From Trichodesmium erythraeum IMS101 (GTDB lineage: Bacteria; Cyanobacteriota; Cyanobacteriia; Cyanobacteriales; Microcoleaceae), in assembly GCF_000014265.1 (NCBI RefSeq), contig NC_008312.1:3750001-3782000 (forward strand): a DNA stretch of 32,000 bases, given 5' to 3'. This document shows positions 8,282-31,657 of the stretch, in pieces. Under the pieces are notes generated by a model. That model ran no database searches, had not been told where the DNA came from, and saw only the letters and a program-made list of their open reading frames with translations. The translations under genes and the position numbers were made by a program. The number at the start of each line of letters is the position of its first letter. Position 1 is the stretch's first letter.

Positions 8282-8321
8282 GAGTTAGTTTCTTTCGCTA
8301 AATTAGTCAATATCTAATGTT

Positions 8322-8355
8322 GAAACGGCAGTAAGTTTAAATTTACTGCCGTTTC
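8322..8355. terminator. 13-bp perfect stem-loop downstream of clpC (candidate bidirectional terminator or RNA-stability element)
   Basis: gaaacggcagtaa (8322-8334) pairs with ttactgccgtttc (8343-8355). It lies 41 nt after the clpC stop and 43 nt from the 3' end of the minus-strand intron. There is no strong U-tract on either strand. Confidence 0.5.
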
Positions 8356-8441
8356 GAGGTATTATATTATTTCGGAAGTATTATAGTATAGCAGTTGAGT
8401 TAAACTAAGCCAGGTAAGTTACCCTACCCGACTCGTCTTCA

Positions 8442-8475
8442 GAACCGGACGTGAGGCTTTCACCTCATCCGGCTC
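8442..8475 (-). ncRNA. Group II intron domain V (catalytic hairpin)
   Basis: The minus strand reads GAGCCGGAUGAGGUGAAAGCCUCACGUCCGGUUC. This is 34 nt with the AGC triad, a 2-nt bulge position and a GAAA tetraloop, matching the domain V consensus. Confidence 0.85.
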
Positions 8476-8496
8476 CTCTCTTAAACGTCCTTTTTT

Positions 8497-10330
8497 TCAT
8501 AGGTACATCCCTGTTTTTAGAATCAACATATCATTTACCCATAGGTATTCATCAGGTAAGTCCTGTAACTTAGGTTTTGTGTATGTTTTATTATCTAAAG
8601 CAGTTTTAGTATCGTGGCAGTGTCGGTGTAGCAGTTGTTTATTTTTAACTGTGTTGTCACCACCTTCAGACCTTGGTTTTATATGGTCAATTTCCATAAG
8701 GTCGTTTGATCTGAAGGTTAATCCACAAAATGCGCATTTATTCTTTTGCCGTTTTAACAGCGTTGTTACTTCTTTCCTTATGCCTGGGTGTTTACCGATT
8801 CTACTGCTCCAATAAGTCCAATCGCCGTCATAAGGGGATTTATTGCCCTTTACCTTGACGTGTCTTTTTATAGCTACGTCTGCGTGTAGGTTAAGTACGT
8901 ATTCGCCGTCATTAAGTAACCAGTTTCTGGTCTCTTTGCAGCGAGGGAAATACTTTTGTTTTACCCATTTGGCTGACTTGTTTGGATGCCGTCTACTTCC
9001 CCATCTCCATATCCTTTTCCACAGGAGGCAGTCTAATTTGCTGTATACCTCTTTACTGACTACAGTGGAGAAGTAGTTGGCCCATCCCCTGATTATCGGA
9101 TTTAGTTTAGCTATTAAAGCTTTCGTAGGGGCGGTTTTGTGGCAATCACATATATCCGCCAACTTCCGATAATGAGTTTTAATACTCTTAGATGATGGCT
9201 TAATCAGTGTCTTAAATCCTTGTTTGGTTGTCTTGACTTTCCATTGCCTTATTGTAAATCCTAAAAAATTAAATCCGGGTTTGTTTCCTTCATATTCTTC
9301 CAGGGTGTGGGCAATTTTAGTCTTTTCTGGTTTTAGCTCTAATCCTACCTGGTTTAACCATTCCTGTATTAAGGTTTTTGCTTGTATTAATACTTTGATG
9401 TCTTTGTGTAGGATTACAAAATCATCTGCGTATCTTATTAAGGATAATGCCTGTATGTTGTCATGCTTTCTCCCTGGAAGGGTTTTGGCAAATTCTTCTA
9501 AACATTTTTCCATACCGTGTAGGGCGATGTTTGCTCTTTCAGGGTGAGATAACCCCTCCCTGTGGCGTACCTTCCACAGTGTTTGAGAATTGTTTGTTGT
9601 CACACACTCCAGATTTTAACCATTGTTTGATTAATCGTCTGTATGGAGATTTTCCTATTTTTCTCAACAGTGCACCATGGTTAATTTGGTCAAAACATTT
9701 GGATATGTCAGCATCTAAAACATATTTTGATTTTTTGTTGATGCTTTTATAGATGGCTTCAATGGCATCATGTGCTGACCGACCTGGTCTAAAACCATAG
9801 CTATTAGGCTCAAAAAGTGCCTCCCATTCTGGTTCCATACCTAACTTTACCAGTGCTTGAAGGGCCCTATCATACATGGTAGGTATGCCTAGTGGACGTT
9901 TTTCTTCTCTACCTGGTTTTGGTATCCAGACTCTACGGGTTGGGCTTGCTTTAAGATATCGTGACCTTAACATTTCTACCAAGTTAAATCTTTGCATTGG
10001 GGGAAGACTTTTTATACCGTCTATACCCGCTGTTTTCTTTCCCTGGTTGTCTTGCGTCACACGCCTAACAGCTAGCAACCTAGCATAATAACTTTTGGTC
10101 AGAAGTTTTTGATACTTACGCATTTTGCGGATTTCGCCACGGCTGGATGCTCTGTAAATTAACTTTTGCAACTTAAATACATATTTTTCTACCTTTTTCC
10201 AGTTAATGTCTTTCCATTTAAGGTTAGGATTGACACTACATAGGTCTGGTATATCGTTTGTATCCCATGCTACGCTTAAAAATGGCTCAGGATTTTCTAA
10301 GTTTCTTTTTAGGGTTTTAGCTTTGTTCAT
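8497..10330 (-). pseudogene. Group II intron reverse transcriptase/maturase with HNH endonuclease domain, split by one frameshift
   Basis: ORF 9539..10330 carries RT motifs up to ...EGTPQGGVISP and then stops. ORF 8497..9603 continues in another frame with ...ERANIALHGME, the YADD box (IRYADDFVIL), the maturase X region and an HNH motif (CAFCG...EIDHIKPRSEGGDN...HRHCHDTKT). The expected SPLLANIAL junction is broken at ~9545-9550 by a shift of 1 or 2 nt. Confidence 0.85.
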
Positions 10331-11093
10331 AGCTAGTCATTACTTTACATTACGTCTAACAGTGAGTACGTCTGCATCTGCAATGCTTCTTACTCAATCC
10401 TACTCTCCTTAAAACCTACAACTTCTGTGTAGATTGACCTTGAATGGCTTCCTAAGTTTTCGACCTATTTACTTAGGTGTTTTTAAAGAGGTTTCCTCGT
10501 TCCCTTATTCCTTTATTGCGATTGATTTAGTGGGGTAAATTCTCCCGGGGGTTATGACATGGTTGTTGACATAAACTATACTATATTTATGTCCATTGGC
10601 CCCTGACCTTCGTCCAACATCCCATAGCTACCTTCGGAATGGTCCTTAATAACGAGAGTTTGATTACCTTCCTATTTGTCCACTTGTCAACCTTTGCTCG
10701 CGGTATCGTTCCTCGGTAACTGGTATTTTCCCGCTTTTAAACCAGCTTCAGGGATTGATGTTCAATCGCTACCCTGTGGTCTACGCTGTCAACCTAACAA
10801 CAAGGTGGATGGAATTACACCATCAAGGTAATAAGAGTTATTCACAAGTCGAGGTTTTCCTCATGTGGTGACTTGGAATGGTCATTTATACACAGTTTCC
10901 TGGTTTTAGTGACCAACGAGTCGCACAGTATAGGTTAAGACATTAATTTCGGTTATATTCCAAATCCGGAATAGAGAGAGTGTCCTAAGCTTTTGTTCGA
11001 TTGCTATAACTCTTTTTTTACCTGGGTTGTGAGTTAAATGGATTTAGATTTAGTTAGATAGCTGAGAATTTCAATACATATTTACTTAACTTA

Positions 11094-11813
11094 CTAAGAT
11101 TTGACATCAGTTTTAAAGCGATCAGCATTAGCACTTTCCGCAGTCGCGACATCCCCCTTACCAAAAAATGCAGGAAATGGTTTAGGGATTTCAAGTGCCC
11201 GTTGAGTTCTAGGTCTGTTGTCAATACATTCAAACCAAGCTTGAAGATTTTCTAGTCCATCTACTGATACTTTAGCCCAGTAGTAGGAGCGTGCCCAAGG
11301 ATAAGTAGCTATATCTGCAATGCTAAACTCATCTCCAAGCAAGTAGGTTTTACCTTCAAGTTGCTTATCTAAAACTTCGAGTAGTCTACGTGACTCTTGG
11401 ACATATCGCTTGATTGAAAATTCTTCATGATGTCCTTGAGGTTCAGCAATCCTTTGGAAGTACATAGCCTGACCCATCATTGGGCCAACACCACCCATCT
11501 GAAACATTAACCACTGAAGTGCTTGGGAGCGGGATTTTTCTTCTTTGGGAAGGAATTTTCCGTACTTTTCCGCTAGATACCAAAGAATTGCACCAGACTC
11601 GAAGACGACAAAATTATCATTGCTAAGATCTACGATAGTTGGGATGCGTCCATTGGGGTTAAGCTTCATATACCACTCAGATTTCTGATCCTTTTTGCTA
11701 AAGTCGATGGGTGTTAGGTTGTATTCGACTTCTGCTTCTTCAAGAAAAATTAAAGGCTTCCAACCATTCATGGTGGATGCTGTGTAAAGATGAATATCAG
11801 GTTGTGTTGACAT
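11094..11813 (-). CDS. Glutathione S-transferase, Nu-class (YfcG/YghU-like)
   Basis: 239 aa. The thioredoxin-like N-terminus reads NGWKPLIFLEEAEVEY, NPNGRIPTIVD and FESGAILWYLAEKYG, followed by a helical C-terminal domain. It resembles E. coli YfcG-type GSTs. Confidence 0.85.
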   Translation of the reverse strand: MSTQPDIHLYTASTMNGWKPLIFLEEAEVEYNLTPIDFSKKDQKSEWYMKLNPNGRIPTIVDLSNDNFVVFESGAILWYLAEKYGKFLPKEEKSRSQALQWLMFQMGGVGPMMGQAMYFQRIAEPQGHHEEFSIKRYVQESRRLLEVLDKQLEGKTYLLGDEFSIADIATYPWARSYYWAKVSVDGLENLQAWFECIDNRPRTQRALEIPKPFPAFFGKGDVATAESANADRFKTDVKS

Positions 11814-15225: not shown

Positions 15226-16270
15226 GACAACTATTTTACGTTAATTACTGCCCGGGAAAAGTTCGATGAAAGAAACAAATCCAGTGACCATACTATCTTG
15301 TTTCCATCGATGGTGCGATCGCTCAACTGGGTTAAGAGACTATATAGGAGGATTACTCTTGAGAAAGTCAAAGAAAAAACTTGTCTCAAATGTCGAATAA
15401 TACTATAGATATATCATACCACAAGTTACGGCATTTCTTAGTTGGAGCCAACTGGTCAATTGGTGCTGTCAATGAGCGTCGTCTTCAAGTTATGTGGCAA
15501 TGTCGTCAAACTAAACCCTCTTGTTCATTTGTTGTGATTATAGATGACTCGGGACATAGAAAAAGTGGTAATTTAACTGCAGGAGTGGGGCAACAATACA
15601 TAGGAGAAACTGGAAAAACAGATAATGATATAGTTGTCGTTATAACTCATCTTGATGATGGAGTAAAAAGTCTACCTTTAGATATAGCTTTATATCAAAA
15701 AGCAAATTCTTTACCTATAGGAAAAAAAGACCGAGAATAAGTTTAAGAAACCAGATGAGCGCAATATCTCTAGTTGACAAATGTTTGTCAGCCCGGATAT
15801 CAACCAGAAATTGTGTTAATTGATAGGGGATATGGTAATAATACATTATTCTTAAATCAACTAGAGAAAAGAAATTTAACTTATATAGGAGGATTAGCTA
15901 AAAATCGAAAAGTCCAAATCCCAAAACAGGATGATATTAAAGAGGAAATTAAATTAGAAAAACTAGCTGAGAGTATATCCCCAAAGGCTTTTAACTTAGT
16001 TAAACTAAGTACAAAAAAAATGCGGGGTGTGGGTAGCCATATTAAAAGTAGAACTATCTAGGATGTCAGATCGAAAAACTATAGCTATCGTTATGAATAC
16101 TAAAAATGTTTCTGAGGCCACTGATATTAACTATTATATTACTAATATTGATAGTAAATATGTAACTCCCCAGTGGATATTGTCTACTTATACTAAGAGA
16201 AATTAGGTGTAGGTTTTCTATAGAGAAGCCAAGGAATGGCTAGGGCTGAGAGAATATAAAATCAGTTTAA
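15226..16270 (+). pseudogene. IS701-family (DDE) transposase, fragmented
   Basis: ORFs 15381..15740 and 15774..16061 are consecutive pieces of an IS701-type transposase. The first reads ...VVIIDDSGHRKSGNLTAGVGQQYIGETGKTDNDIVVVITHLDDGVKSLPLDIALYQKANSLPIGKKD and the second ...GYQPEIVLIDRGYGNNTLFLNQLEKRNLTYIGGLAKNRKV. Further pieces (QWILSTYTKRN*V*VFYREAKEWLGLREYK) run to ~16266, with stops and frameshifts between them. Confidence 0.65.
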
Positions 16271-17606: not shown

Positions 17607-17796
17607 ATAACCACCATACCTAGTGAGGTATTTCATGTTCGGAGCACCTGCGCCTGGAAACTAACTATAGATGGTGTGTGATTTGATATGCTTGGGTAAC
17701 TTCTATTATAAATATTCCCTAAAATCAACTTTAGAAAAGACTTGTTCAAAAAATGTTGTACAGGAATTTATTCTATACAAAAATATACTTTTACAG

Positions 17797-19512
17797 ATGC
17801 CAAGATTAAATTCTCCAAGTATTTTTCCTCACTTTGACATTATAGTGGTAGGTTCAGGTGCTGCCGGACTTTATGCGGCTCTTTGTTTACCTGTTCATCT
17901 CCGAGTCGCCTTGGTTACTAAAAATACTATAAACATGGGTTCAAGTAACTATGCTCAGGGAGGTATTGCTGCTGCCATTGATCCTGCGGATAACCCCATC
18001 TTGCATCTAGAAGATACTCTCAAAGCAGGTGTAGGTTTATGTGACCAGGAAGCAGTAAGGTTTATGGTGGACAATGCGGCCAGAGCGATCGCTCATTTAG
18101 TAGAAATGGGAGTTGCCTTCGACCGCAAAGGAAAAAAACTGGCAATGACTCTCGAAGCTGCTCACTCTCATCCCCGGGTGCTTCATTCAGCAGATACCAC
18201 AGGTAGAGCTATTATTGATACACTCGTTATTGAAGCTCAAGAACGTCCAAATATTCAGATAATTTCCCAGGCAGTAGCATTAAATTTGTGGTTAGCCACA
18301 CAAAAGGCTCGGGTTCAAGGTATTAGTCTTCTTCACGAAGGTAAAATCCAGTGGTTAAAATCCTCTGTAGTGGTTTTAGCAACAGGTGGAGGCGGTCAAA
18401 TATTTGCCCAAACTACTAATCCTGAGGTGAGTACGGGGGATGGAATTGCTATAGCGTGGCGTGCCGGGGCAGTTTTGCGAGATTTGGAATTTTTCCAATT
18501 TCATCCTACTGCCTTAATTAAACCAGGAGCACCTCGTTTTCTCATTAGTGAAGCTGTTCGTGGAGAAGGAGCGCACCTAATAGACAATAAGGGAAACCGC
18601 TTTGCCTTTGAGTATCATCCGGCTGGAGAGTTAGCTCCTAGAGATGTTGTCAGTAGAGCTATTTTCCATCATTTGCACAAAACTGCTACCAAGCCTACCA
18701 ATGCTCATGTTTATTTGGACTTGCGAGCCATTGACTCAGACCGCGTTCGCGACAGATTTCCCAATATTATCAATGTCTGTCAAAAATGGGGTATTGATGT
18801 TTTTCAAGAACCTATTCCGGTTGCTCCTGCTGCTCATTATTGGATGGGTGGAGTGGCTTGCGATCTAATGAGTCAGACTTCAATTCCCGGACTATATGCA
18901 ATTGGGGAAACAGCAAGTACAGGAGTTCACGGAGCAAATCGTTTAGCTAGCAATTCTTTGTTAGAATGTTTAGTATTTGCTTCTCAACTATCTCAGATTG
19001 AAATTGAGCCAAATTTGGTGGCACCTGATGCTGATATTTTTCAGGTAAGTTCTAATTGGAATATGGAAATGGAACAGATAGAGGCTATCCGACAAATGTT
19101 ACCAAGTTTAATGTGGGAAAGTGCAGGAATTTCTCGTAAAGGAGAGTCATTAAGTCAGGCACTATATCAGGTGGCGCGCTGGCGAGATAGTTTAGCAAGT
19201 TTTGAGATAGTTAAGTTTTTAGCTAATCTCTTGCCTAACCAGACGATAAAATTAAATTCGACTAATGCTGAAGAGCAGTTGCGGATAACAGCAGAAACAC
19301 TCAATATTTTAGACTTGGGTTATTTAATTCTTAAAAGTGCTGCATGGCGAACTGAAAGCAGAGGTGGGCATTATCGCAGTGATTATCCAAAAACTTCTAA
19401 TGATTGGAAACTACATACTTTGGTTCAGGGCGATCGCTTATTAACTGGTTTTCCAAATGCCTCGCCCCCTGGCCAAGAGAGAGGGTCTTCAGTCAACATT
19501 GAAAAATTTTGA
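17797..19512 (+). CDS. nadB: L-aspartate oxidase
   Basis: The ORF is 17671..19512. I place the start at the ATG at 17797 (MPRLNSPSIFPHFDIIVVGSGAAGLYAAL), just before the FAD GxGxxG fold. Other motifs are HSHPRVLH, SEAVRGEGA, GLYAIGETASTGVHGANRLASNSLLE and ESRGGHYRSDYP. The product is 571 aa. Confidence 0.93.
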   Translation: MPRLNSPSIFPHFDIIVVGSGAAGLYAALCLPVHLRVALVTKNTINMGSSNYAQGGIAAAIDPADNPILHLEDTLKAGVGLCDQEAVRFMVDNAARAIAHLVEMGVAFDRKGKKLAMTLEAAHSHPRVLHSADTTGRAIIDTLVIEAQERPNIQIISQAVALNLWLATQKARVQGISLLHEGKIQWLKSSVVVLATGGGGQIFAQTTNPEVSTGDGIAIAWRAGAVLRDLEFFQFHPTALIKPGAPRFLISEAVRGEGAHLIDNKGNRFAFEYHPAGELAPRDVVSRAIFHHLHKTATKPTNAHVYLDLRAIDSDRVRDRFPNIINVCQKWGIDVFQEPIPVAPAAHYWMGGVACDLMSQTSIPGLYAIGETASTGVHGANRLASNSLLECLVFASQLSQIEIEPNLVAPDADIFQVSSNWNMEMEQIEAIRQMLPSLMWESAGISRKGESLSQALYQVARWRDSLASFEIVKFLANLLPNQTIKLNSTNAEEQLRITAETLNILDLGYLILKSAAWRTESRGGHYRSDYPKTSNDWKLHTLVQGDRLLTGFPNASPPGQERGSSVNIEKF

Positions 19513-19756: not shown

Positions 19757-20728
19757 TTATGTGAATGAAAGTTCCAACATCTTTTGAATAGGTTTTAATG
19801 CTGCTACTCGTGTTTCTTCAGGAATCATAATTTCTGGCGTCTTATTTTTCATTGCTAAATAAAGCTTTTCTAAATTATTCAGCCTCATGTGGGGGCATTC
19901 GTTACAAGCACAATTATTCATTGCGGGTGCGGGAATAAAGTTTTTCTTGGGTTCTCTCTTTTGCATTTGGTGAATAATTCCCGGTTCAGTTGCCACAATA
20001 AATTCTTGCTCTTGGCTTTCTTGGCAATATTTTAATAAAGCAGTGGTCGAACCAATATAATTGGCATGACGCAATAAATTTGGTTCACATTCTGGATGAG
20101 CAATAATCTCAGCTTCAGGATGTTCTATTTTTAATTGCACAATCTTTTTCTCAGAGAATGTCTCGTGAACAATACAACTGCCTGACCACAAAATCAAATC
20201 TCGTCCAGTTTGTTCCATGACATAGCGACCGAGGTTCTTATCTGGGGCAAAAATTATCGGTTGGTCTGTTGGTATTTGTTTAACTATTTTGACAGAGTTG
20301 GAACTGGTGCAAATAATATCACTCATTGCCTTAATAGCAGCAGTACAATTAATATAAGAAACTACTATGGCATCAGGATGAGCCGCCTTAAATTTGCCAA
20401 ATTCTTCTGGTGGACAACTATCGGCGAGGGAGCAACCTGCATCTAGATCTGGTAGCAGTACCAGTTTATTTGGGTTAAGAATTTTCGCAGTTTCTGCCAT
20501 AAAATGAACTCCCGCAAAAACTATTACATCTGCATCAGTTTCAGCAGCTTTTTGAGAAAGGCCAAGAGAGTCACCAATATAGTCGGCAATATCTTGAATA
20601 TCTGGTTCTTGGTAATAGTGAGCTAGAATAACAGCATTTAATTCTTTCTTTAGGTCGGCGATCGCTTCAAACAAATCATCTGGTATGCTATTAAAATTTT
20701 GGTTGATTCGAGTTTGAGTTGCAAACAT
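19757..20728 (-). CDS. nadA: Quinolinate synthase
   Basis: 323 aa with the motifs [46 protein letters not shown] and TEPGIIHQM, plus a C-terminal CACNECPHM cluster typical of NadA. Confidence 0.95.
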
Positions 20729-21485: not shown

Positions 21486-22319
21486 ATGACAGAAGCAGTA
21501 ACAATTGCTCAAAAATATTATGATAGTACAGAAACCGACAAATTGTATGCTGCCATCTGGGGTGGGGAACATATTCATTATGGAATATACACTAGACCAG
21601 ATGAACCTATCCACGATGCTTCCCTGAGTACAGTAAAAACTATCGCCCAAACTCTGAAAAAAATAGACCAAAATTCCCGAGTCATTGACCTCGGAGCAGG
21701 ATATGGAGGGGCAGCTAGGTATTTAGCTAAAACCTACGGCTGTTCTGTATGTTGTCTCAACTTAAGCCAATTGCAAAATCAACGCAATGGCCAACTCAAC
21801 CAAGAACAAAACTTAGATCCTTTGGTGGAAATAACTCAAGGAAGCTTTGAGGATATTCCCTACCCAAATAACTCTTTTGATATTGTTTGGTCTCAAGATG
21901 CTATTTTGCATAGTGGCGATCGCTGTCTAGTTTTTCAAGAAATCAAGAGAATTTTAAAACCAGGGGGCGAATTTATTTTTACTGACCCCATGGAGAGTGA
22001 AACTTTTCCCCCAGGAGCATTGCAAACTGCTTTTGACCGTTTGGGGATAAGTGACATGGGATCTTACCGCTTTTACAGTCAAACATTAAAAGATTTAGGT
22101 TTTGAGGAATTAAATTTTATTGACCTTTCGCAAAATGTAGCGATCCATTATCGGCGTTTTAGGGAAGAAGTACAGAAAAGGTACAATGAAGTAGTAAAAC
22201 TGACATCAACGGAATTTGTAGATAAAACTTTAGATAGCATTCAACCTTGGATCGAACGTTACGAACAGGGATATATGCAATGGGCGATTTTACACTTCCG
22301 TTTGCTGGAGAAAAATTAA
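21486..22319 (+). CDS. SAM-dependent N-methyltransferase, sarcosine/dimethylglycine N-methyltransferase (SDMT/DMT)-like
   Basis: 277 aa. The N-terminal YYDSTETDKLYAAIWGGEHIHYGIY block, SAM motif I VIDLGAGYGGAARYLA, the WSQDAILHSGDR block and the post-I/II motif ILKPGGEFIFTDPM closely resemble betaine-forming methyltransferases of halophilic cyanobacteria, as I recall them. The substrate cannot be read from the sequence. Confidence 0.8.
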   Translation: MTEAVTIAQKYYDSTETDKLYAAIWGGEHIHYGIYTRPDEPIHDASLSTVKTIAQTLKKIDQNSRVIDLGAGYGGAARYLAKTYGCSVCCLNLSQLQNQRNGQLNQEQNLDPLVEITQGSFEDIPYPNNSFDIVWSQDAILHSGDRCLVFQEIKRILKPGGEFIFTDPMESETFPPGALQTAFDRLGISDMGSYRFYSQTLKDLGFEELNFIDLSQNVAIHYRRFREEVQKRYNEVVKLTSTEFVDKTLDSIQPWIERYEQGYMQWAILHFRLLEKN

Positions 22320-22421: not shown

Positions 22422-22862
22422 ATGACTATTTACTTTTTTGATGAAACAGAACAGCCTTATGGTTGTTTCTCCAACTTTTCCCCCCACGGTTTTGAACTAG
22501 ATGGACTTTGGTGGCCAACTTCAGAGCATTATTTCCAAGCCCAAAAATTTTTGGGGGTTCAGCATCTTGAAGAAATTAGATGGGCTAAAACTCCTGCAGG
22601 TGCTGCTAAAATGGGACGAGAGCGTAGTCGTCCCCTCCGCAAAGACTGGGAGGAAATAAAAGAGGATGTGATGGAGCGAGGTTTACTTTGTAAATTTCAA
22701 AGCCATAAAGATATTGGCGAAATTCTTCTGAGTACCAAGGATGAGTTAATAGTAGAAAACGCTCCTGAAGATTATTATTGGGGATGTGGTAAAGATGGGA
22801 GTGGTAAAAATCGTTTGGGAGAGATTTTAATGAAAGTGCGCAATAGGTTACAGAATAATTAA
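22422..22862 (+). CDS. NADAR-domain protein (YbiA/DUF1768 family N-glycosidase-like)
   Basis: 146 aa. The blocks YGCFSNFSPHGFELDGLWWPTSEHYFQAQKF, AAKMGRERSRPLRKDWEEIKEDVM and DYYWGCGKDGSGKNRLGEILMKVR align block for block with E. coli YbiA as I remember it. Confidence 0.85.
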   Translation: MTIYFFDETEQPYGCFSNFSPHGFELDGLWWPTSEHYFQAQKFLGVQHLEEIRWAKTPAGAAKMGRERSRPLRKDWEEIKEDVMERGLLCKFQSHKDIGEILLSTKDELIVENAPEDYYWGCGKDGSGKNRLGEILMKVRNRLQNN

Positions 22863-23151: not shown

Positions 23152-24237
23152 ATGACTCATTTAATGAATGCGGTTATTCTTACTGGATTTGGTGGACCAG
23201 AAAAACTGGTCTATACTCAAGTTCCTAAACCAACTCCAAAACCAGGAGAAGTCTTGATTAAAGTGGGAGCTTGTTCGGTAAATAATACAGATATTAATAC
23301 TCGCACTGGCTGGTATGCTGCAGAGGATAATTTTCAAGCTATCCTCCAAGATAACACAGAAAATGACCCCAATCATTCTGCTTGCTGGACACAACATGGT
23401 ACCCAGTTTCCTCGAATACAAGGTGCTGATATCGTTGGGAAAGTAATAGAAATTGGGGAAAATGTAGATTCTAAATTTATCCAACAAAGGGTTATAGTTG
23501 ATAGTTGGATTCGTAGTGAAAGTCCTAATAATTATCAATATATTGGCAGTGAATTAGATGGAGGTTTTGCTGAATATACAGTAGTTCCTATTACTAATGT
23601 TTATCCAATTAATTCTTCACTTTCTGATATTGAATTAGCTACATTTCCCTGTTCTTATTCGACAGCAGAAAATATGCTTACTAAAGGAAAAATTACAGCG
23701 GAAGATACTGTGGTAATTATAGGGGCTTCTGGTGGTGTTGGTAGTGCTTTAATTCAATTAAGTAAAATTAGGGGAGCAAAAGTTATTGCTATTGTTGGAG
23801 CTAATAAAGAAGCTTTTGCTAAAGATTTAGATGCAGATTATGTTTATCGACGAGATAATTTATTAGAGTCTAATTTAGCTCAACATAAAATTACTGTTGC
23901 TTTAGATGTCGTCGGAGGAGATTATTTTAATTTGATGATTAAATCTCTTGAGCCAAGAGGAAGATACGTTTCCTGTGGAGCGATTCGAAATCCAATGGTT
24001 TCTCTAGATTTACGAGATTTGATTTACAAAGATTTAGAGATGATTGGAGCAACACGCCTAGAATCAGATGTGTTTCAAAGGTTAGTTAGATACCTAGAAG
24101 CAGATTTATTAAAACCTCTGGTTGCTCAAGTTTTTCAGTTATCTAAAATAAAAGAGGCTCAACAATTTTTTCAAAGTAAAGGTTTCTTTGGAAAAGTTGT
24201 ACTTAATATTGAAGAACAAAATATTACAAAAAATTGA
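23152..24237 (+). CDS. MDR-superfamily NAD(P)H-dependent oxidoreductase (quinone-oxidoreductase/Zn-ADH-like)
   Basis: 361 aa. The GroES-like N-terminus reads GGPEKLVYTQVPKPTPKPGEVLIKVGACSVNNTDINTRTGWY, and the Rossmann motif reads VVIIGASGGVGSALIQLSK. It has a ~35-aa insert before FPRIQGADIVGKV. Confidence 0.8.
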   Translation: MTHLMNAVILTGFGGPEKLVYTQVPKPTPKPGEVLIKVGACSVNNTDINTRTGWYAAEDNFQAILQDNTENDPNHSACWTQHGTQFPRIQGADIVGKVIEIGENVDSKFIQQRVIVDSWIRSESPNNYQYIGSELDGGFAEYTVVPITNVYPINSSLSDIELATFPCSYSTAENMLTKGKITAEDTVVIIGASGGVGSALIQLSKIRGAKVIAIVGANKEAFAKDLDADYVYRRDNLLESNLAQHKITVALDVVGGDYFNLMIKSLEPRGRYVSCGAIRNPMVSLDLRDLIYKDLEMIGATRLESDVFQRLVRYLEADLLKPLVAQVFQLSKIKEAQQFFQSKGFFGKVVLNIEEQNITKN

Positions 24238-24248
24238 GAATATTAAGA

Positions 24249-25649
24249 ATGAATATTGTCTTAAAACTTGTTGATTGTACTCGGTCAAAACATAATTTGA
24301 CCTTGCTTTACCAATACAACGAAATAACTTTTACAACTACTCTTTGGTATTCAACAGTTGACTTTCATCAGCTAGAATCAGAATATACTCAAGAATACAT
24401 GGAGAAAATTTATTTCCATATTTTGTTATTTCATGGATTAAAGATATTAAGTTTAAAACCGACTCACCTTGACTTAGGAAAATATAGTAAATATTGGACA
24501 AGTAATCTACAAAATATTTGGGATTTAAGCGTCGAAGAATGTTTAGGACAGTGGCGTTATGAAACAAATAATTTAGATTATCAAGGAACTAAAATTATTC
24601 ATCAGGATATTACTCTTATAAAAAATTCAGCAGTAACTATTATTCCTGGAAAAATCCCCTTACTTGTTGGCAATGGTGGTGGCAAAGATAGCCTGTTAAT
24701 GGCTATAATTTTAGACGATAATCATATTCCTTTTGATAGTTTTAGCATCAATTTACATACTCATGCTAATCAAAACAAGTTGTTTGAAATGCATGAACAG
24801 CATCTTTATCAACTTAAAAATCCACCGGAAAAAGTTCACCGTCAGTACATTATTGAGTCATTCCTAAATTCTCCAGCAGCTCAACTTCATCGCGTAGAAA
24901 ATTTAGAAATTTCTGATATTAGAAATTATGAAGATTTACCCTTAGCTTATGGAATGTTTGGAATTTTGCCTATTATTCTGCAAGAGAAATATACGCAATT
25001 ATGTTATGGCAATGAAAAAAGTGCTGATAGGGAACAGGTGACAGTAGGGAATCAAAATATTAATCATGCTTGGTGTAAAAGTACCGAGTGTAAAGAAGTT
25101 TATGAAAAGTATATTCAAGAAGAATTTATTAGTAATTTAGTAGTCTTTAGTTTACTAAAACCATGTTCTGATATATTAGTATATCGAATTTTGGCTCACA
25201 AAGTTAAAAAAGGCGATTTAAAATTAGTTTACTCTTGTAATACTAAGCCGCCTTGGTGTAAATCCTGTCCTAAATGTGCTTATGTTTATTTATCCTATAT
25301 GGCTTATCTAACTCCAGAACAGGCAAATGAAATTGAACAAGTTTTAAACAAAGAAAATCTTTTTGATAAACCTGAACTACAGCTTTATTATCGACAACTA
25401 ATGGGGCTAAAAGCTCATAATGCTTTTGAATGTGTGGGTGAAATTGAAGAGACAAAAGTTGCTTTAGAAAAATGTCTGGAAAAAGGATTTACTGGGAAAG
25501 CAATTAATTGCTACACTCAAGAAGCGCGTTTAGATAAAGATGAATATCACAAGCTTTGGAAAGAATATCAACAATTAGATTTATCTTATCAGCGTATGCC
25601 ACCAAAATTAATGGAAATTATGATAGATGAATGTCAAAATTTAAATTAA
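24249..25649 (+). CDS. Protein of unknown function with a QueC-like PP-loop motif and Cys4 cluster (putative ATP pyrophosphatase-type enzyme)
   Basis: The ORF track starts at TTG 24234, overlapping the stop of the upstream gene. The first ATG is at 24249 (MNIVLKLVD), giving 466 aa. The motif LLVGNGGGKDSLL (24675-24692 encodes GGGKDS) resembles the SGGxDS PP-loop. The sequence CNTKPPWCKSCPKC (25236-25277) forms a C-x6-C-x2-C-x2-C cluster about 185 aa downstream. I could not recognise a named family for the ~140-aa N-terminal or ~120-aa C-terminal regions. Confidence 0.6.
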   Translation: MNIVLKLVDCTRSKHNLTLLYQYNEITFTTTLWYSTVDFHQLESEYTQEYMEKIYFHILLFHGLKILSLKPTHLDLGKYSKYWTSNLQNIWDLSVEECLGQWRYETNNLDYQGTKIIHQDITLIKNSAVTIIPGKIPLLVGNGGGKDSLLMAIILDDNHIPFDSFSINLHTHANQNKLFEMHEQHLYQLKNPPEKVHRQYIIESFLNSPAAQLHRVENLEISDIRNYEDLPLAYGMFGILPIILQEKYTQLCYGNEKSADREQVTVGNQNINHAWCKSTECKEVYEKYIQEEFISNLVVFSLLKPCSDILVYRILAHKVKKGDLKLVYSCNTKPPWCKSCPKCAYVYLSYMAYLTPEQANEIEQVLNKENLFDKPELQLYYRQLMGLKAHNAFECVGEIEETKVALEKCLEKGFTGKAINCYTQEARLDKDEYHKLWKEYQQLDLSYQRMPPKLMEIMIDECQNLN

Positions 25650-25802: not shown

Positions 25803-26918
25803 ATGAAGAGTACAGCAACTTTAAATAAGACTTTTCTTACAGTCAAAGGCAAACGTTTTCACTATGTTTGGTTGCGGGATAATTGCTTATCTCCAAAATC
25901 TCGTCATCCAACTTCTTTTCAGAAACTATATGAAATGAAGCATACTTTATGCCCTGAACCATTATCTGTAGAAGAGAAAGATGGGGAACTGACTATCATT
26001 TGGAACGAAGATCCTCCTCACAAAAGTACATTCTCAATATCTTGGTTGTTGAGTCACGCTTACGATGACGGAGAGCAGGATAATGAAAATGAAGACTCTG
26101 AATCTAATTCTCAGAACCAGGAATTTTTATGGGATAAAGCTTGGATAGAAGCAAATATATCAAAGTTGCAGGAAGCTCTTTCATCCAATCCCGAATTGTG
26201 GCTCGAGCAGCTTTTTACTTTCGGATTCACCGTACTCCATAATATACCAGCCAAGGATTTGCAGGCTACAATAGAATCCATTGGGCCAATTTACAACGGT
26301 GACTACGGATTGTTCGCACCATCAAAGACTACAAATGAAGGAAAGGATTTAGCAGAGACTGGTAATGCGATGAGCTTCCATACTGACTATACTTATTGGC
26401 ACACTCCACCTTTGCTCACCAGCTTGTATTGTGTAGAAAATAGTGCTTCTGGTGGGGAGTCGCTGATCGTAGACGGTTTTCGAGTTGTGGATGATTTTCG
26501 TCAGCAACATCCGGATTATTTTCAGATTTTGACTCAAACTCCCATCCAGTTCAAACAGGTGTACACAAAATGGCAATACTTTTATTCCAGAACTCAGCCT
26601 ATATTAGAATTAGATGAATATGGAAAAGTGACTAGAATCAATTTTGCCAACTCTCACAGCTACACTTGGAAATTACCATTCGATCAAATGGAGGAATTTT
26701 ATGCAGCTTACATAACCTTCTTTCAATATGTAAAAAATCCAGTTTATGAATACTGCTTTAGTCTAGAACCGGGAGACCTTCTGTTGATGAATGACTCCAG
26801 GATTATGCATGGACGGAAAGCTTTTACAGGTAATCGACATCTGGAAATAGCCTGTGTTTCTTGGGATTTTTTGCAGGCACGGCAGCGCTTTCATCAAAAT
26901 AAACATCTTTTTATGTAG
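25803..26918 (+). CDS. Fe(II)/2-oxoglutarate dioxygenase, gamma-butyrobetaine hydroxylase/TauD-family-like
   Basis: 371 aa. The N-terminal DUF971-like block is FHYVWLRDNC. The facial triad reads MSFHTDYTY (HxD) and RIMHGRKAF (distal His plus Arg). A good RBS (taggag) lies 8 nt upstream of the ATG. Confidence 0.82.
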   Translation: MKSTATLNKTFLTVKGKRFHYVWLRDNCLSPKSRHPTSFQKLYEMKHTLCPEPLSVEEKDGELTIIWNEDPPHKSTFSISWLLSHAYDDGEQDNENEDSESNSQNQEFLWDKAWIEANISKLQEALSSNPELWLEQLFTFGFTVLHNIPAKDLQATIESIGPIYNGDYGLFAPSKTTNEGKDLAETGNAMSFHTDYTYWHTPPLLTSLYCVENSASGGESLIVDGFRVVDDFRQQHPDYFQILTQTPIQFKQVYTKWQYFYSRTQPILELDEYGKVTRINFANSHSYTWKLPFDQMEEFYAAYITFFQYVKNPVYEYCFSLEPGDLLLMNDSRIMHGRKAFTGNRHLEIACVSWDFLQARQRFHQNKHLFM

Positions 26919-27195
26919 ACTTTCAAAGTTATATAGCAACCCTAATCTCTCCTCCTAGAATGGGTTAGGGTTCTATACCAAGTTTATGGCTAAGGACGCT
27001 ATGATTTAATAGTTATAGTCATTGCAAAAAGAGATGGAAAACTTTTTCTGCTGAAACGCGAGTTATAGCAAGAAATACTTGTCTTAATCTAAATTAAAAT
27101 AACTATAAGTACTAACAAAAAATTAGTCCTTCCCGATTCAAAACTGATGAGATTTGAACAGAAAATCTCTTGAAAAAATAAGGATTAAAATAAAT

Positions 27196-27939
27196 ATGAC
27201 TACAACTCTAGCTACTCCTGATACTAGTTTAGCAACCATTCAAGCTGCTTTACCTATTGATCCACAGCCCTATATTATAGCCGATCGCCCTACCGGACTC
27301 ATAGTCGTAGATGTACTTAATGGTTTTTGCACTGTTGGTTTTGGACCATTAGCCCCCCAAGAGCCAAACGAACAAATCGCTACAATGGTCTCGGAAAGCG
27401 ATCGCCTAGCTCGTACTTTTGTAGAAAAAGGTTGGCCTGTATTAGCCTTTTTAGATACCCATGAACCAGGAAAACCCGAGCCTCCTTATCCACCACATTG
27501 TGAAAAGGGTACGGGAGAAGAAGAACTCGTTCCCGAACTTCAATGGTTACACGATAACCCCCTGGCAACATTGGTTTTTAAGGATTGTATTAATGGATTT
27601 ATAGGTTCTATTGACATAGATACCCAAGGTAATGTATTGTTGGATTGGATAAATAAGAATAAGCTTGAGGCCCTTGTTGTAGTTGGAATTTGTACTGATA
27701 TCTGTGTCATGGACTTTGTTGTTACTATTCTGTCAGTACGCAATCATGGTTTAGCGCCTACCTTAAAAGATGTGGCTGTATACGATCAAGGTTGTGCTAC
27801 TTTTGATATGACAGCACAAATGGCAGCCGAGAAAGGCTTACCCAAAACTGCTATTCATCCACAGAAAATATCTCATCATGTAGGGTTATATACAATGGCC
27901 GAACGTGGTGCATTTATTGCTTCTACTATTAAGCTTTAG
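27196..27939 (+). CDS. pncA: Isochorismatase-family cysteine hydrolase, nicotinamidase/pyrazinamidase (PncA)-like
   Basis: The ORF track starts at TTG 27154, but the ATG at 27196 (MTTTLATPD) is preceded by aagga. The motifs are VVDVLNGFC (catalytic Asp), FLDTHEPG...PPYPPHC (the D-x-H...H metal site of nicotinamidases; compare M. tuberculosis PncA KDFHIDPG...WPPHC), FKD (Lys) and VVVGICTDICV (nucleophile Cys). Confidence 0.72.
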   Translation: MTTTLATPDTSLATIQAALPIDPQPYIIADRPTGLIVVDVLNGFCTVGFGPLAPQEPNEQIATMVSESDRLARTFVEKGWPVLAFLDTHEPGKPEPPYPPHCEKGTGEEELVPELQWLHDNPLATLVFKDCINGFIGSIDIDTQGNVLLDWINKNKLEALVVVGICTDICVMDFVVTILSVRNHGLAPTLKDVAVYDQGCATFDMTAQMAAEKGLPKTAIHPQKISHHVGLYTMAERGAFIASTIKL

Positions 27940-28205
27940 AAGCTGATTCACTTAACTAGCTATTAGCTTTTAGCAGTCCTAGTTGAAATCACTAGTTTCT
28001 ATAAACCGAAAGGTTTAAGAGAGTTTTAAATACCCTTCTAAATGTTTATCGCCGAGGGCTTATTGTTAGAAATGAAGGTAGAATTTGGCGTTTGAAATAA
28101 AATTTTAAAATTTTAGACCTAGATGTTGAATCCTACTTTTATTAAATGAAAATAATATAATTCTTTTTGAAGATACCAACATAAAAAATAGAGGCAAAAA
28201 ATTTG

Positions 28206-29021
28206 ATGAATACTCAATTAGCAATTGTCACCGGTGCAGGAGGCGCTGTTGGATCTTGCTACCTCAAACACTTTTTAAAACAAGAAAATACAAAATGTGT
28301 GGCTCTTTCCCGAAGCCATTTAGAAACAACCGATGTTATACAATTTAAAGTCGATCTGTTAGATGAAAAAAGAACTAGGGAAGCGATCAAACAATTAGAC
28401 CTTAGTGAGGTTAATGATTTAATATTGGTGCATGGTGTAGGTAAATTTAAATACGAAGACCTCAAGTCTCTACCACACCTAAACCAGGAGCGGCACAAAA
28501 TAGATGATGAAGTATTCTCATCGAACTATCATACTTTTGTTAACGTAGTCAACCCTTTAGTAGAAAAACTTAATGAAGAACATCAGCGAGGGAGAAAAAC
28601 AACCCTCGCTCTTTGTGGTTTTGGTTCCATTAGTGATAAATACAAAATCCCATTTTGGCATTCTTATACTTATGCTAAGGATACTTTACGCCAATATATC
28701 AAAGACTTAGCTAAGTCAGAAGAGTGGCAAGGATTAATTAGGGGACGTTTTATTAATGTTAGTACCACAGATACAGGTAATGAAAATAAGTTGCGTCCTA
28801 ATGTCACCCATGAAGAAAAACAATATTGGTTAAAACCAGAAAAAATTGTTTTTCAATCTATGGCAGTCATTGAAAGTTTACAACCTCTATGGCAAGAAAT
28901 AGATGTTTTTGAAATATTGCCAGGATTTAATCCAGAAGAATATTACAATGATTATCAGACCATCAAAGAAAAATGGCAGCGTCAGATGGCGCTAACTAAA
29001 GTTGATGAGTGCTTGATCTAA
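28206..29021 (+). CDS. Short-chain dehydrogenase/reductase (atypical SDR)
   Basis: The ATG at 28206 is the second codon of the tracked ORF. The motifs are AIVTGAGGAVGSCY (TGxxGxxG dinucleotide motif) and SYTYAKDTL (YxxxK). The rest of the sequence is divergent. Confidence 0.62.
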   Translation: MNTQLAIVTGAGGAVGSCYLKHFLKQENTKCVALSRSHLETTDVIQFKVDLLDEKRTREAIKQLDLSEVNDLILVHGVGKFKYEDLKSLPHLNQERHKIDDEVFSSNYHTFVNVVNPLVEKLNEEHQRGRKTTLALCGFGSISDKYKIPFWHSYTYAKDTLRQYIKDLAKSEEWQGLIRGRFINVSTTDTGNENKLRPNVTHEEKQYWLKPEKIVFQSMAVIESLQPLWQEIDVFEILPGFNPEEYYNDYQTIKEKWQRQMALTKVDECLI

Positions 29022-29140: not shown

Positions 29141-29968
29141 ATGGAGAATGCTGCCAAGGCGATCGCTCATCTAGTAGAAATGGGAGTTGCCTTCGACCGC
29201 AAAGGAAAAAAACTGGCAATGACTCTCGAAGCTGCTCACTCTCATCCCCGGGTACTTCATTCAGCAGATACCACAGGTAGAGCTATTATTGATACACTCG
29301 TTATTGAAGCTCAAGAACGTCCAAATATTTAGATAATTTCCCAGGCAGTAGCATTAAATTTGTGGTTAGCCACACAAAAGGCTCGGGTTCAAGGTATTAG
29401 TCTTCTTCACGAAAGTAAAATCCAATGTTTAAAATCCTCTGTAGTAGTTTTGGCAACAGGTGGAGGCGGTCAAATATTTGCCCAAACTACTAATCCTGAG
29501 GTGAGTACGGGGAATGGAATTGCTATAGCGTGGCGTGCCGGGGCAGTTTTGCGAGATTTGGAATTTTTCCAATTTCATCCTACTGCCTTAATTAAACCAG
29601 GAGCACCTCGTTTTCTCATTAGTGAAGCTGTTCGTGGAGAAGGAGCGCACCTAATAGACAATAAGGGAAACCGCTTTGCCTTTGAGTATCATCCGGCTGG
29701 AGAGTTAGCTCCTAGAGATGTTGTCAGTAGAGCTATTTTCCATCATTTGCACAAAACTGCTACCAAGCCTACCAATGCTCATGTTTATTTGGACTTGCGA
29801 GCCATTGACTCAGACCGCGTTCGCGACAGATTTCCCAATATTATCAATGTCTGTCAAAAATGGGGTATTGATGTTTTTCAAGAACCTATTCCGGTTGCTC
29901 CTGCTGCTCATTATTGGATGGGTGGAGTGGCTTGCGATCTAATGAGTCAGACTTCAATTCCCGGACTA
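29141..29968 (+). pseudogene. nadB: Internal fragment of nadB (residues ~90-366), duplicated, with a premature stop
   Basis: It aligns base for base with 18064-18894. A 3-nt indel and several changes sit at the 5' edge, and I counted 9 substitutions between 29171 and 29513, including CAG to TAG at 29330-29332. The last ~455 bp are identical. The fragment lacks the N-terminal FAD-binding fold and the C-terminal third. Tracked ORFs 29129..29332 and 29360..29986 are its two pieces. Confidence 0.92.
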
Positions 29969-30470: not shown

Positions 30471-31574
30471 CTATCTTAGCCAACTACCAAACTCCGTAAT
30501 AAACCTATCTTTCAAAATAGCATCCCGAATACGTTGGGTAAAACTAATCAATTCTGTAACATTATGCAAAGACAAAAGAGTATAACCCAAAGCTTCCTTT
30601 GCTCTAACCAAATGACTCAGATAAGCTCGACTAAAATTTTGACAACAATAACAAGGACAAAACTCATCAAGTGGTCTAAAATCTTCCTTAAACCTAGCAT
30701 TCTTCAAATTCCACCTCTCACCCCTCACTAATGCTGCCCCATGTCGCCCCAAACGAGTAGGAATCACACAATCAAATAAATCTATACCCTCAGCGATCGC
30801 CCGTACCATTTCCCTATAAGTGCCAACTCCCATCAAATAACGAGGCTTATCCTCTGGCAAGAAAGGAGTTGTCACCTTCACAATATGATCTATTAACTCG
30901 CCTGGTTCTCCTACACTTACCCCACCAATAGCATAACCAGGCAGATCCAAATCTACCAACTGCCTTGCTGCTATAGAACGAAGTTCAGGATAAACACCAC
31001 CTTGAACAATACCAAACAAAGCTTGATCCTGACGTTGATGAGCCTCTATGCAACGCTGCAACCATCGATAAGTGCGATTTGTTGCCAACTCCACCTCTTC
31101 CCAACTCGCTGGATAAGGTGGACACTCATCAAAAGCCATAATTACATCCCCTCCCAATTCATTCTGAATTTGGATCGAGCGTTCTGGAGTTAAATCAATC
31201 ATGCTACCATCATGAGGAGAGCGAAACTTAACTCCTGCTTCGCTAATAGTTCGGATATCTCCTAAGCTAAATACCTGAAATCCTCCAGAGTCAGTTAATA
31301 TTGGCCTATTCCAAGCCATAAATTTATGTAACCCACCAGCACCAGCAACAATACTTTCTCCTGGTTGTAAGTGAAGATGATAAGTATTTGCCAAGATCAT
31401 CTGCGCACCTGCCGCCTCTAACTGAGCAGGTGTGAGAGTTTTTACATTTGCCAAGGTTCCCACAGGCATAAATCTAGGTGTATTTATACTCCCATGAGGA
31501 GTTATAAAAATACCTGCACGAGCTTTTGTATAGCTACAACGAGCCTGAGAATTAAAGGAAAAGTTTTGGGACAT
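30471..31574 (-). CDS. tgt: tRNA-guanine transglycosylase (queuine tRNA-ribosyltransferase)
   Basis: The motifs are [50 protein letters not shown] and PRYLMGVG, plus the zinc motif CPCYCC...H. The tracked ORF starts at a GTG at 31613. The ATG at 31574 ([10 protein letters not shown]) gives an N-terminus of the usual length. Confidence 0.92.
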
Positions 31575-31657
31575 AAGATCGATCTTAGATTTTAGTAAGC
31601 GAGAAAATTTCACCTATTTTCTCTAGAATGAGAAATTTAGTCAGAGCCAAAATTTGA

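Follow-up and report, generated by a model that had tools for sequence, protein, structure and literature searches.

The 32,000-nt stretch of Trichodesmium erythraeum IMS101 analysed here (contig NC_008312.1, positions 3,750,001 to 3,782,000), hereafter the window, carries an intact reading frame of 466 aa that, judged from sequence comparison, is a full-length but strongly diverged member of the MurL family, not MurL proper. Two starts can be read for this gene, an ATG at 24249, 11 nt past the stop codon of the upstream gene for a medium-chain dehydrogenase/reductase (MDR), and a TTG at 24234 that overlaps the TGA stop of the same MDR gene (24235-24237). Since orthologue alignments begin at residue 1 of the ATG form, the ATG is the likelier start, and residues are numbered from it unless TTG numbering, which adds five, is stated. 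The gene is under purifying selection, with ratios of nonsynonymous to synonymous substitution of 0.12-0.22 against nine orthologues, and is therefore functional. The gene and its three motifs are as follows.

24249-25649, plus strand: MurL-family reading frame, intact, 466 aa from the ATG
24675-24692, plus strand: PP-loop GGGKDS, residues 143-148 (148-153 in TTG numbering), predicted ATP pyrophosphate-binding loop, invariant in alignments A1 and A2
25236-25277, plus strand: Cys4 motif C330-x6-C337-x2-C340-x2-C343, presumed QueC-like zinc knuckle, invariant in A1 and A2
25425-25451, plus strand: FECVGEIEE, residues 393-401, with invariant C395, G397 and E401, common to Mur-ligase-linked MurLs and the target

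Family and fold of the MurL-like protein

In TTG numbering the PP-loop lies at residues 148-153 and the four cysteines at C335, C342, C345 and C348, exactly where an earlier sequence-only reading of this DNA had placed them. Conservation was assessed in alignment A1, with 57 homologues, and in alignment A2, with 19 sequences that include Mur-ligase-linked MurLs; GGKDS together with Cx(n)CxxCxxC was found in all of them (57/57 and 19/19), which far exceeds chance. Across A1 the C-x6-C-x2-C-x2-C spacing is invariant, as are all four cysteines, and the first PP-loop position is G in 57/57 homologues, so that the departure from S recorded by the sequence-only reading is a trait of the family. The Cys4 stretch CNTKPPWCKSCPKC occupies residues 330-343 (335-348 in TTG numbering), ~187 residues beyond GGGKDS. 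From the target to the Mur-ligase-linked MurLs, 26 columns of A2 are invariant, including G144-S148, E256, S258, N272, H273, K277, S329-C330-N331, W336, C337, C340, K342, C343, G386, C395, G397 and E401. Among these, C395 is a cysteine lying outside the Cys4 cluster; FECVGEIEE, of which it is part, is a candidate catalytic acid/base or acyl-acceptor site.

The protein had been taken for an orphan, with the PP-loop and the cysteines as its only recognisable features; neither description holds. A word-indexed search returned 168 homologues, of which the 120 listed are all ~450-500 aa long and cover the query to ~90-100%. When 1.84 billion representatives of 50%-identity clusters were searched with a profile, 2,605 matched at E<=1e-3, and 1,097 of these reached E<=1e-30. 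Pfam domains PF26299 (MurL_N) and PF26298 (MurL_epimerase_C) are recorded for 120/120 of the listed homologues, including the 99%-identical P0001, and both were assigned to the target indirectly, through these precomputed matches. A direct Pfam scan of the target gave a sub-threshold TANGO2 match only, because the copy scanned predates, and thus lacks, the two MurL models. These domains span the N- and C-terminal regions, so that extensions once regarded as unique and unassignable are conserved parts of the family. Moreover, the NCBIfam equivalog model for MurL, NF041275, matches the target at E=1.6e-26, with 92.8 bits against a cut-off of 700 and over residues 251-414 only, whereas ten representatives of 439-456 aa reach 200-410 bits over nearly the full length of the model. 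The gene for one of these ten, P0264, shares 8 nt with the next gene downstream, whose product has Mur_ligase_M and Mur_ligase_C domains, so that the two are arranged as MurL and MurD2 are. The target is 20-24% identical to such Mur-ligase-linked MurLs, and no Mur ligase was found among the scanned reading frames of the window or among the recurrent neighbour families of its cassette loci; the failed cut-off and the missing partner are the reasons for which we would set it apart from MurL proper.

MurL epimerises an amino-acid alpha-carbon at the expense of ATP, which is converted to AMP, and makes neither an amide nor a nitrile; the reaction runs one way from L to D, requires ATP and Mg2+, and has been proposed by those who described it to proceed through adenylation of the alpha-carboxylate (PMC5808125, PMC8788868). 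This one-way epimerisation is known only for enzymes from Xanthomonas, Micromonospora and Salinispora (PMC8788868). MurL has been described as lacking known domains or cofactor sites (PMC5808125, PMC8788868), and we found neither a MurL structure nor a PP-loop assignment for it in the open literature. The PP-loop and the Cys4 motif are invariant across all tiers of the comparison and so belong also to the MurL clade that has been characterised biochemically, where, on the strength of the alignments, a PP-loop fits the AMP-forming chemistry. Since that chemistry involves carboxylate adenylation, of the kind that the sequence-only reading had expected of a PP-loop enzyme, membership of the MurL family does not place the protein in a characterised family of unrelated function.

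An AlphaFold2 model built from a 57-sequence alignment (pLDDT 91.2, pTM 0.91) places GGGKDS where a PP-loop classically lies, between strand 138-141 and helix 146-157, and the Cys4 motif at the start of helix 341-353. In Foldseek searches of the PDB the top match was QatC (E 1.9e-5, 445 aligned columns, TM 0.41-0.44), with Bacillus subtilis QueC at E 2.6e-4 and a target-normalised TM of 0.66 (0.60-0.66 with Erwinia QueC included); Cap9, argininosuccinate synthase, YcfA, TtuA and LarE were also matched. Foldseek probabilities were 0.99-1.00 for QatC, QueC, Cap9, argininosuccinate synthase and YcfA, and 0.75-0.98 for TtuA and LarE. The target core is thus modelled as a QueC-like PP-loop ATP pyrophosphatase (adenine nucleotide alpha-hydrolase) fold followed by a Cys4 knuckle, and an alpha-hydrolase fold is what the model and Foldseek show around GGGKDS.

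At the sequence level the picture is narrower. A single-sequence search of the PDB with the target gave nothing meaningful, and the family profile gave as its only significant matches the PP-loop regions of TtuA and NcsA, that of TtuA at E 7e-4 with LvfcGGGKDSLv aligned to LVAVSGGKDSAV (SGGKDS loop). The QueC profile PF06508 does not match the target at E<=1; hhalign of A1 against an alignment of eight QueC sequences (Escherichia coli and seven phage QueCs) gave a probability of 9.8% (E 0.0033, 72 columns), and against E. coli QueC alone only 14 columns were aligned. The motifs that define QueC are SGGxDS, at 11-16 in the E. coli enzyme, and the zinc-binding C(x)8CxxCxxC, at 186-204, ~175 residues further on; MurL goes unmentioned in a survey of the QueC family from 2026 (PMC13329287). 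No queD, queE or queF was seen in the window scans. The likeness to QueC claimed by the sequence-only reading therefore stands as a likeness of fold, with the high-confidence model, the QatC and QueC matches, the invariant cysteines and the motif spacing on its side, while membership of the QueC family is rejected for want of a PF06508 match and of more than a weak hhalign score.

The cassette and its relatives

In the window the MurL-like gene is surrounded by the following cassette genes.

17671-19512, plus strand: nadB (L-aspartate oxidase), full, with Pfam FAD_binding_2 and Succ_DH_flav_C
19757-20728, minus strand: nadA (quinolinate synthase), cassette-associated copy, tblastn identity 82-84% in related loci
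21486-22319, plus strand: S-adenosylmethionine-dependent N-methyltransferase, a paralogue of sarcosine/dimethylglycine N-methyltransferase (SDMT), NF041675 at 323 bits (cut-off 550)
22422-22862, plus strand: NADAR-domain protein of the N-glycosidase family, Pfam NADAR E 6e-43, TIGR02464 159 bits
23152-24237, plus strand: MDR-superfamily reductase, directly upstream of the MurL-like gene, Pfam ADH_N and ADH_zinc_N, with PIG3/acryloyl-CoA-reductase-like NCBIfam matches
25803-26918, plus strand: Fe(II)/2-oxoglutarate dioxygenase of the gamma-butyrobetaine hydroxylase (GBBH)/TmpA type, Pfam TauD and GBBH-like_N
27154-27939, plus strand: isochorismatase-family amidase, nicotinamidase (PncA)-like, Pfam Isochorismatase, Mycobacterium tuberculosis PncA 3pl1 at E 7.8e-9
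28203-29021, plus strand: divergent short-chain dehydrogenase/reductase (SDR), Pfam adh_short 27.8 bits
29142-29968, plus strand: internal nadB fragment of 827 bp, 98.4% identical to 18068-18894

The dioxygenase resembles trimethylammonium-specific hydroxylases, namely TmpA (NF049936, 239 bits) and gamma-butyrobetaine dioxygenase (TIGR02409, 234 bits), with both scores under cut-off. M. tuberculosis nicotinamidase PncA is the best solved relative of the amidase, which by eye retains the nicotinamidase motifs VDxxNxFC, D-x-H, PPHC and TDxCV. The best PDB match of the MDR is 4j6f, annotated, like several others, as an alcohol dehydrogenase; further solved relatives are quinone oxidoreductases and the enoyl-reductase domains of polyketide and fatty-acid synthases, and by eye the MDR lacks the GxCHxD signature of zinc alcohol dehydrogenases. 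The SDR has no sequence relative in the PDB, and NADAR proteins are described under TIGR02464 as N-glycosidases acting on ribosyl-nitrogen bonds.

Gene neighbourhoods were examined in 85 related loci. All homologues at least 67% identical to the target lie inside one cassette, a nine-gene operon of marine filamentous cyanobacteria with the order nadA, N-methyltransferase, NADAR, MDR, MurL-like gene, GBBH-like or PhyH dioxygenase, PncA-like amidase, SDR and nadB; they come from Okeania (91-92%), a Microcoleaceae metagenome-assembled genome (86%), Moorena, Symploca, Caldora, cyanobacterium J06592_8 and Hormoscilla SP12CHS1, and form a single, monophyletic branch in a neighbour-joining tree. The NADAR, N-methyltransferase, amidase and SDR genes are all kept. 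Orthologues of nadA annotated with PF02445 (NadA) head the operon in loci L092 and L093, and nadB closes the same operons. Locus L093 is the most compact, with nadA, methyltransferase, NADAR, MDR, MurL-like, GBBH-like, isochorismatase, SDR and nadB on one strand, its GBBH-like gene being shortened to 144 aa by an inserted Uma2 gene. The Symploca variant has an extra 562-aa double methyltransferase, and that of Moorena has nadC (quinolinate phosphoribosyltransferase) directly 5' of the MDR gene and both GBBH-like and PhyH dioxygenases 3' of the MurL-like gene; in other loci PhyH replaces the GBBH-like gene, and one of these also holds Fe-ADH, Iso_dh and an OpuAC betaine-binding protein. The MDR gene lies directly 5' of the MurL-like gene in 13/13 related loci that carry it, so the tight coupling of the two genes proposed from the sequence is supported in the form of a shared operon with a kept gene order. 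Obligatory translational coupling is not supported, given that in the four orthologous loci checked the two genes are separated by 11-53 nt and do not overlap. Likewise, the link to pyridine metabolism that had been drawn from the nicotinamidase-like gene is strengthened by the conserved nadA, nadB and/or nadC and by the PncA-like amidase.

The gene order in the window is that of the related loci, except that nadA is on the opposite strand and the full nadB lies upstream of nadA. The nadB fragment at 29142-29968 occupies the position of the cassette's own full nadB in related loci, and the two copies of this piece, 11,074 bp apart, bracket the whole cassette, which suggests rearrangement, gene conversion or decay. 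The full nadB frame as listed (17671-19512) carries ~42-55 extra residues at its N-terminus, ahead of the FAD-binding domain, and translation probably starts at an internal Met close to residue 43. Between the cassette genes of related loci from different genomes (L001, L004, L005, L008, L092, L093) there are repeated insertions of small genes of a selfish or toxin-like kind (Uma2, XisH/XisI, DUF4058, IS605 OrfB). Just past the cassette, at 30471-31613 on the minus strand, lies tgt (queuine tRNA-ribosyltransferase); a link to the QueC-like gene was considered and rejected, tgt being absent from all related loci and thus coincidental. Elsewhere in the window, a group II intron reverse transcriptase/maturase at 8497-10330 (minus strand) is split into overlapping RVT_N+RVT_1 and RVT_1+GIIM+HNH reading frames, a frameshifted or degraded copy, and fragments of a DDE transposase are found at 15381-16061.

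Outside the cassette clade the surroundings change. The closest relatives, Hormoscilla OZ001293 (L002/L015, 65%) and Streptomyces sp. LZ34 (L003, 47%), share around positions 10001-11434 a set of genes for a DUF3865 protein, an arginase-family protein, methyltransferases and an exporter, and this set, found in a cyanobacterium as well as in a Streptomyces, has the look of a further small-molecule pathway, as yet uncharacterised. A Spirulina sister gene lies in the order ornithine decarboxylase, asparagine synthase, MurL-like, PhyH, isochorismatase, alanine dehydrogenase, SDR and methyltransferase, and one on a metagenomic contig in the order DAO, MurL-like, PhyH, sulfotransferase and exporter. 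For the Nocardioides and Streptomyces gamaensis homologues, reading-frame calls in the high-GC flanks were noisy and Pfam scans uninformative. A 16-Mb contig of the nemertean worm Tubulanus polymorphus has an annotated homologue of 468 aa and 35% identity (P0031), which could be a eukaryotic copy or contamination. Our literature searches found no paper on the product of the operon, on a nadA/NADAR/methyltransferase cluster, or on homarine or trigonelline genes in cyanobacteria.

Proposed function and rival explanations

The operon looks biosynthetic, a pathway leading from NAD precursors to a small molecule. It looks to have a dedicated supply, with quinolinate or nicotinate mononucleotide (NaMN) coming from nadA, nadB and nadC, and nicotinate from the PncA-like and possibly the NADAR protein; after this would come N-methylation, two reductions, one or two hydroxylations and the MurL-like step. 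The presence of an N-methyltransferase together with a betaine-type dioxygenase suggests an N-methylated or quaternary intermediate, and the SDMT-like methyltransferase and GBBH/TmpA-like dioxygenase of the cassette, as well as the OpuAC betaine-binding protein of one orthologous locus, support chemistries of the betaine type. In this context, we judge it somewhat better than an even chance that the target is a divergent MurL-family PP-loop enzyme of a fixed NAD-precursor operon which adenylates a carboxylate and perhaps inverts the neighbouring carbon. The most likely substrate group would be the carboxylate of a reduced, N-methylated, nicotinate-derived intermediate.

The mechanism may be envisaged from MurL and from PP-loop enzymology. 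GGGKDS would bind ATP, and the substrate carboxylate would be adenylated with release first of pyrophosphate and then of AMP. By a looser analogy with MurL, the acyl-adenylate could acidify the alpha-hydrogen, allowing inversion of the carbon next to the carboxylate, and hydrolysis of the adenylate would free AMP and make the inversion irreversible; the invariant C395, H273 and E256 might serve as base or as transient acyl acceptor. More speculatively, the substrate could be a nicotinate- or NaMN-derived ring reduced by the MDR and the SDR, with a stereocentre alpha to the C3 carboxylate, which the methyltransferase would N-methylate toward a betaine and of which the downstream betaine-type dioxygenase would hydroxylate the correct epimer. 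Such an N-methylated or quaternary substrate would be beyond the reach of pyridoxal-phosphate racemases, and an ATP-driven epimerase may therefore have been recruited.

Several points weigh against this proposal. The NF041275 match is confined to residues 251-414 and identity to Mur-ligase-linked MurLs is only 20-24%, and the nearest structural relatives in the modelled fold (QueC, QatC, Cap9) form amides and do not epimerise. Because the carboxylate of an aromatic pyridine lacks an alpha-hydrogen, the epimerase part depends on a prior, unproven reduction of the ring. Furthermore, the cassettes around sister-clade members differ greatly from this one, which shows plainly that the clade as a whole does not keep to one substrate.

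Among other uses of an activated carboxylate, a QueC-type ligase, in which ammonia or an amine attacks the adenylate to give a carboxamide, a nitrile or a conjugate (for example by turning one carboxylate of an intermediate made from quinolinate or nicotinate into an amide), seems to us rather unlikely. It would agree with the top fold matches QueC, QatC and Cap9, all amide-forming (PMC13329287, PMC13279940), with the PncA-like amidase kept in the cassette and with the Spirulina sister gene that comes after an asparagine-synthase gene; but an amidase and an amidating enzyme working on the same group would be futile, neither PF06508 nor hhalign (9.8% probability) ties the protein to the QueC profile, and the sole characterised member of its family releases AMP without forming an amide. 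The NadE-like amidation raised by the sequence-only reading likewise found no direct support. Activation for reduction, in which the neighbouring NAD(P)H-dependent MDR or SDR takes as its true substrate either an acyl-adenylate or the acyl-Cys395 thioester formed from this, and gives an aldehyde or an alcohol, or adds hydride to an otherwise unreactive alpha,beta-unsaturated acid, would account for an MDR gene invariably directly 5' within the cassette clade, for MDR relatives (quinone oxidoreductases, enoyl-reductase domains) that normally need an activated acyl or enone, and for an invariant C395 outside the Cys4 cluster. C395 is, however, also invariant in true MurLs, where no reduction occurs, members of the family beyond the cassette clade lack an MDR partner, and no PP-loop enzyme is known to us to work together with an MDR carboxylate reductase, for which reasons we hold this course to be improbable.

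A sulfur transferase dependent on an iron-sulfur (Fe-S) cluster, of the TtuA, NcsA or LarE type, would bind the cluster through its cysteines and thiolate the adenylated substrate. The only significant PDB profile matches are the PP-loop regions of TtuA and NcsA, TtuA and LarE are among the fold matches, and many family members cluster with genes for ergothioneine, a sulfur compound; yet such a function is very improbable, given that the four-Cys CxxCxxC fits the QueC zinc site and not the three-Cys Fe-S site of TtuA and LarE (PMC13329287), that MurL activity was reported with ATP and Mg alone, that profile scans show no sulfur-donor genes in the cassette, and that in the ergothioneine-linked loci C-S bond formation is already provided for by EgtB or MES. 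As for a genuine peptidoglycan MurL, which the shared Pfam domains and the name given to relatives in some databases would invite, it is effectively excluded: the 92.8 bits fall far below the 700-bit cut-off of NF041275, identity to the Mur-ligase-linked enzymes is 20-24%, the conserved context is NAD-precursor chemistry, and neither the scanned frames of the window nor the recurrent cassette neighbours include the Mur ligase that P0264 overlaps. We thus retain the adenylating MurL-family enzyme as the preferred function.

The wider family and known systems

Among 67 more distant loci (30-40% identity), 19 have within 10 kb at least one ergothioneine-type gene, counted as EgtB-type (sulfoxide synthase, DinB_2 and FGE-sulfatase), EgtD-type (betaine-forming histidine methyltransferase, Methyltransf_33) or MES-type, the molybdopterin/cysteine-desulfurase fusion described previously (PMC9516567). 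Often they are immediate neighbours of the MurL-like gene and share its strand, as in L051 and L052, with egtB, the murL-like gene, egtD and an OpuAC-type ABC transporter. The linked loci come from many phyla and include L025, L028, L030, L032, L039, L044, L051, L052, L063, L067 and L079, together with L088 (MurL-like gene at 8001-9434) and L090 (8001-9398). No paper on MurL homologues in ergothioneine clusters was found in the literature, and a word search of the MES report found no mention of an epimerase, of ATP or of neighbouring genes (PMC9516567). This linkage suggests betaine-type amino acids, hercynine or ergothioneine for example, as the substrates of a large part of the "MurL" family, and also supports the betaine reading of the present cassette. 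The linked protein P0050 (L090) and several JGI and UniRef entries of the same kind are named UDP-N-acetyl-alpha-D-muramoyl-L-alanyl-L-glutamate epimerase, a name that is probably an over-propagated annotation.

Taken broadly, and as a tentative suggestion that is possible rather than probable, the MurL family would not be mainly a peptidoglycan family but a PP-loop class that activates, and probably stereo-inverts, the carboxylates of fully N-substituted amino-acid-like molecules; the cassette clade would divert quinolinate or NaMN to a reduced, N-methylated and hydroxylated pyridine-carboxylate betaine, and the sister group would serve ergothioneine or hercynine metabolism. If so, a new osmolyte or signalling compound could be expected in bloom- and mat-forming marine cyanobacteria, and the sister group would perform an unrecognised step of ergothioneine or hercynine metabolism, a partner enzyme that the ergothioneine field may have overlooked. 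The QueC-like PP-loop placement would explain the ATP-to-AMP stoichiometry of MurL and names K146, D147, S148, the Cys4 site and C395 as candidate catalytic residues. Moreover, a nine-gene operon with its own nadA, nadB and/or nadC is a concrete lead to new chemistry of pyridines or betaines in marine cyanobacteria that matter ecologically, and the spread of the MurL name to clearly non-peptidoglycan proteins, such as the target and the ergothioneine-linked copies, calls for correction of the annotation.

Compared with known systems, the sulfur transferases TtuA, NcsA and LarE have the PP-loop region in common with the target at the profile level and are Cys-rich as it is, but the similarity is limited to ~70 residues around the PP-loop and their Fe-S site has three cysteines in another arrangement. 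QatC, the best whole-chain structural match, resembles the target in being larger than QueC, whose scaffold it extends by further domains, and in having an altered Cys motif; sequence identity is 10%. QatC and Cap9 are defence proteins (QatABCD and the type IV cyclic-oligonucleotide-based antiphage signalling system, CBASS), whereas the target lacks qatA, qatB, qatD, CD-NTase and Cap10 partners; a defence role was rejected on account of the conserved metabolic operon and of the missing Qat and CBASS partners, the PADLOC library not having been searched.

QueC itself has the same PP-loop fold, with a phosphate-binding xGGxDS loop at the start of the core and a Cys knuckle ~185 residues on, and adenylates a carboxylate, as the target presumably does. 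The target is twice the size of QueC, with an N-terminal domain of ~125 aa and a helical C-terminal one of ~110 aa, both conserved, and has GGGKDS and C(x)6CxxCxxC in place of SGGxDS and C(x)8CxxCxxC. Unlike MurL of Xanthomonas oryzae (XOO_1319), it has no L-Glu-adding Mur ligase of the MurD2 type as partner and is embedded in an operon of NAD-precursor, methyltransferase, reductase and dioxygenase genes, so that its substrate cannot be the UDP-MurNAc dipeptide, and its first Cys spacer is of 6 residues, against 9-17 in MurL. In fact, the two proteins match in their two-domain architecture and length (about 450-470 aa), share GGKDS, Cx(n)CxxCxxC, the FECVG motif and a set of invariant polar residues, and presumably activate their carboxylates by the same conversion of ATP to AMP.

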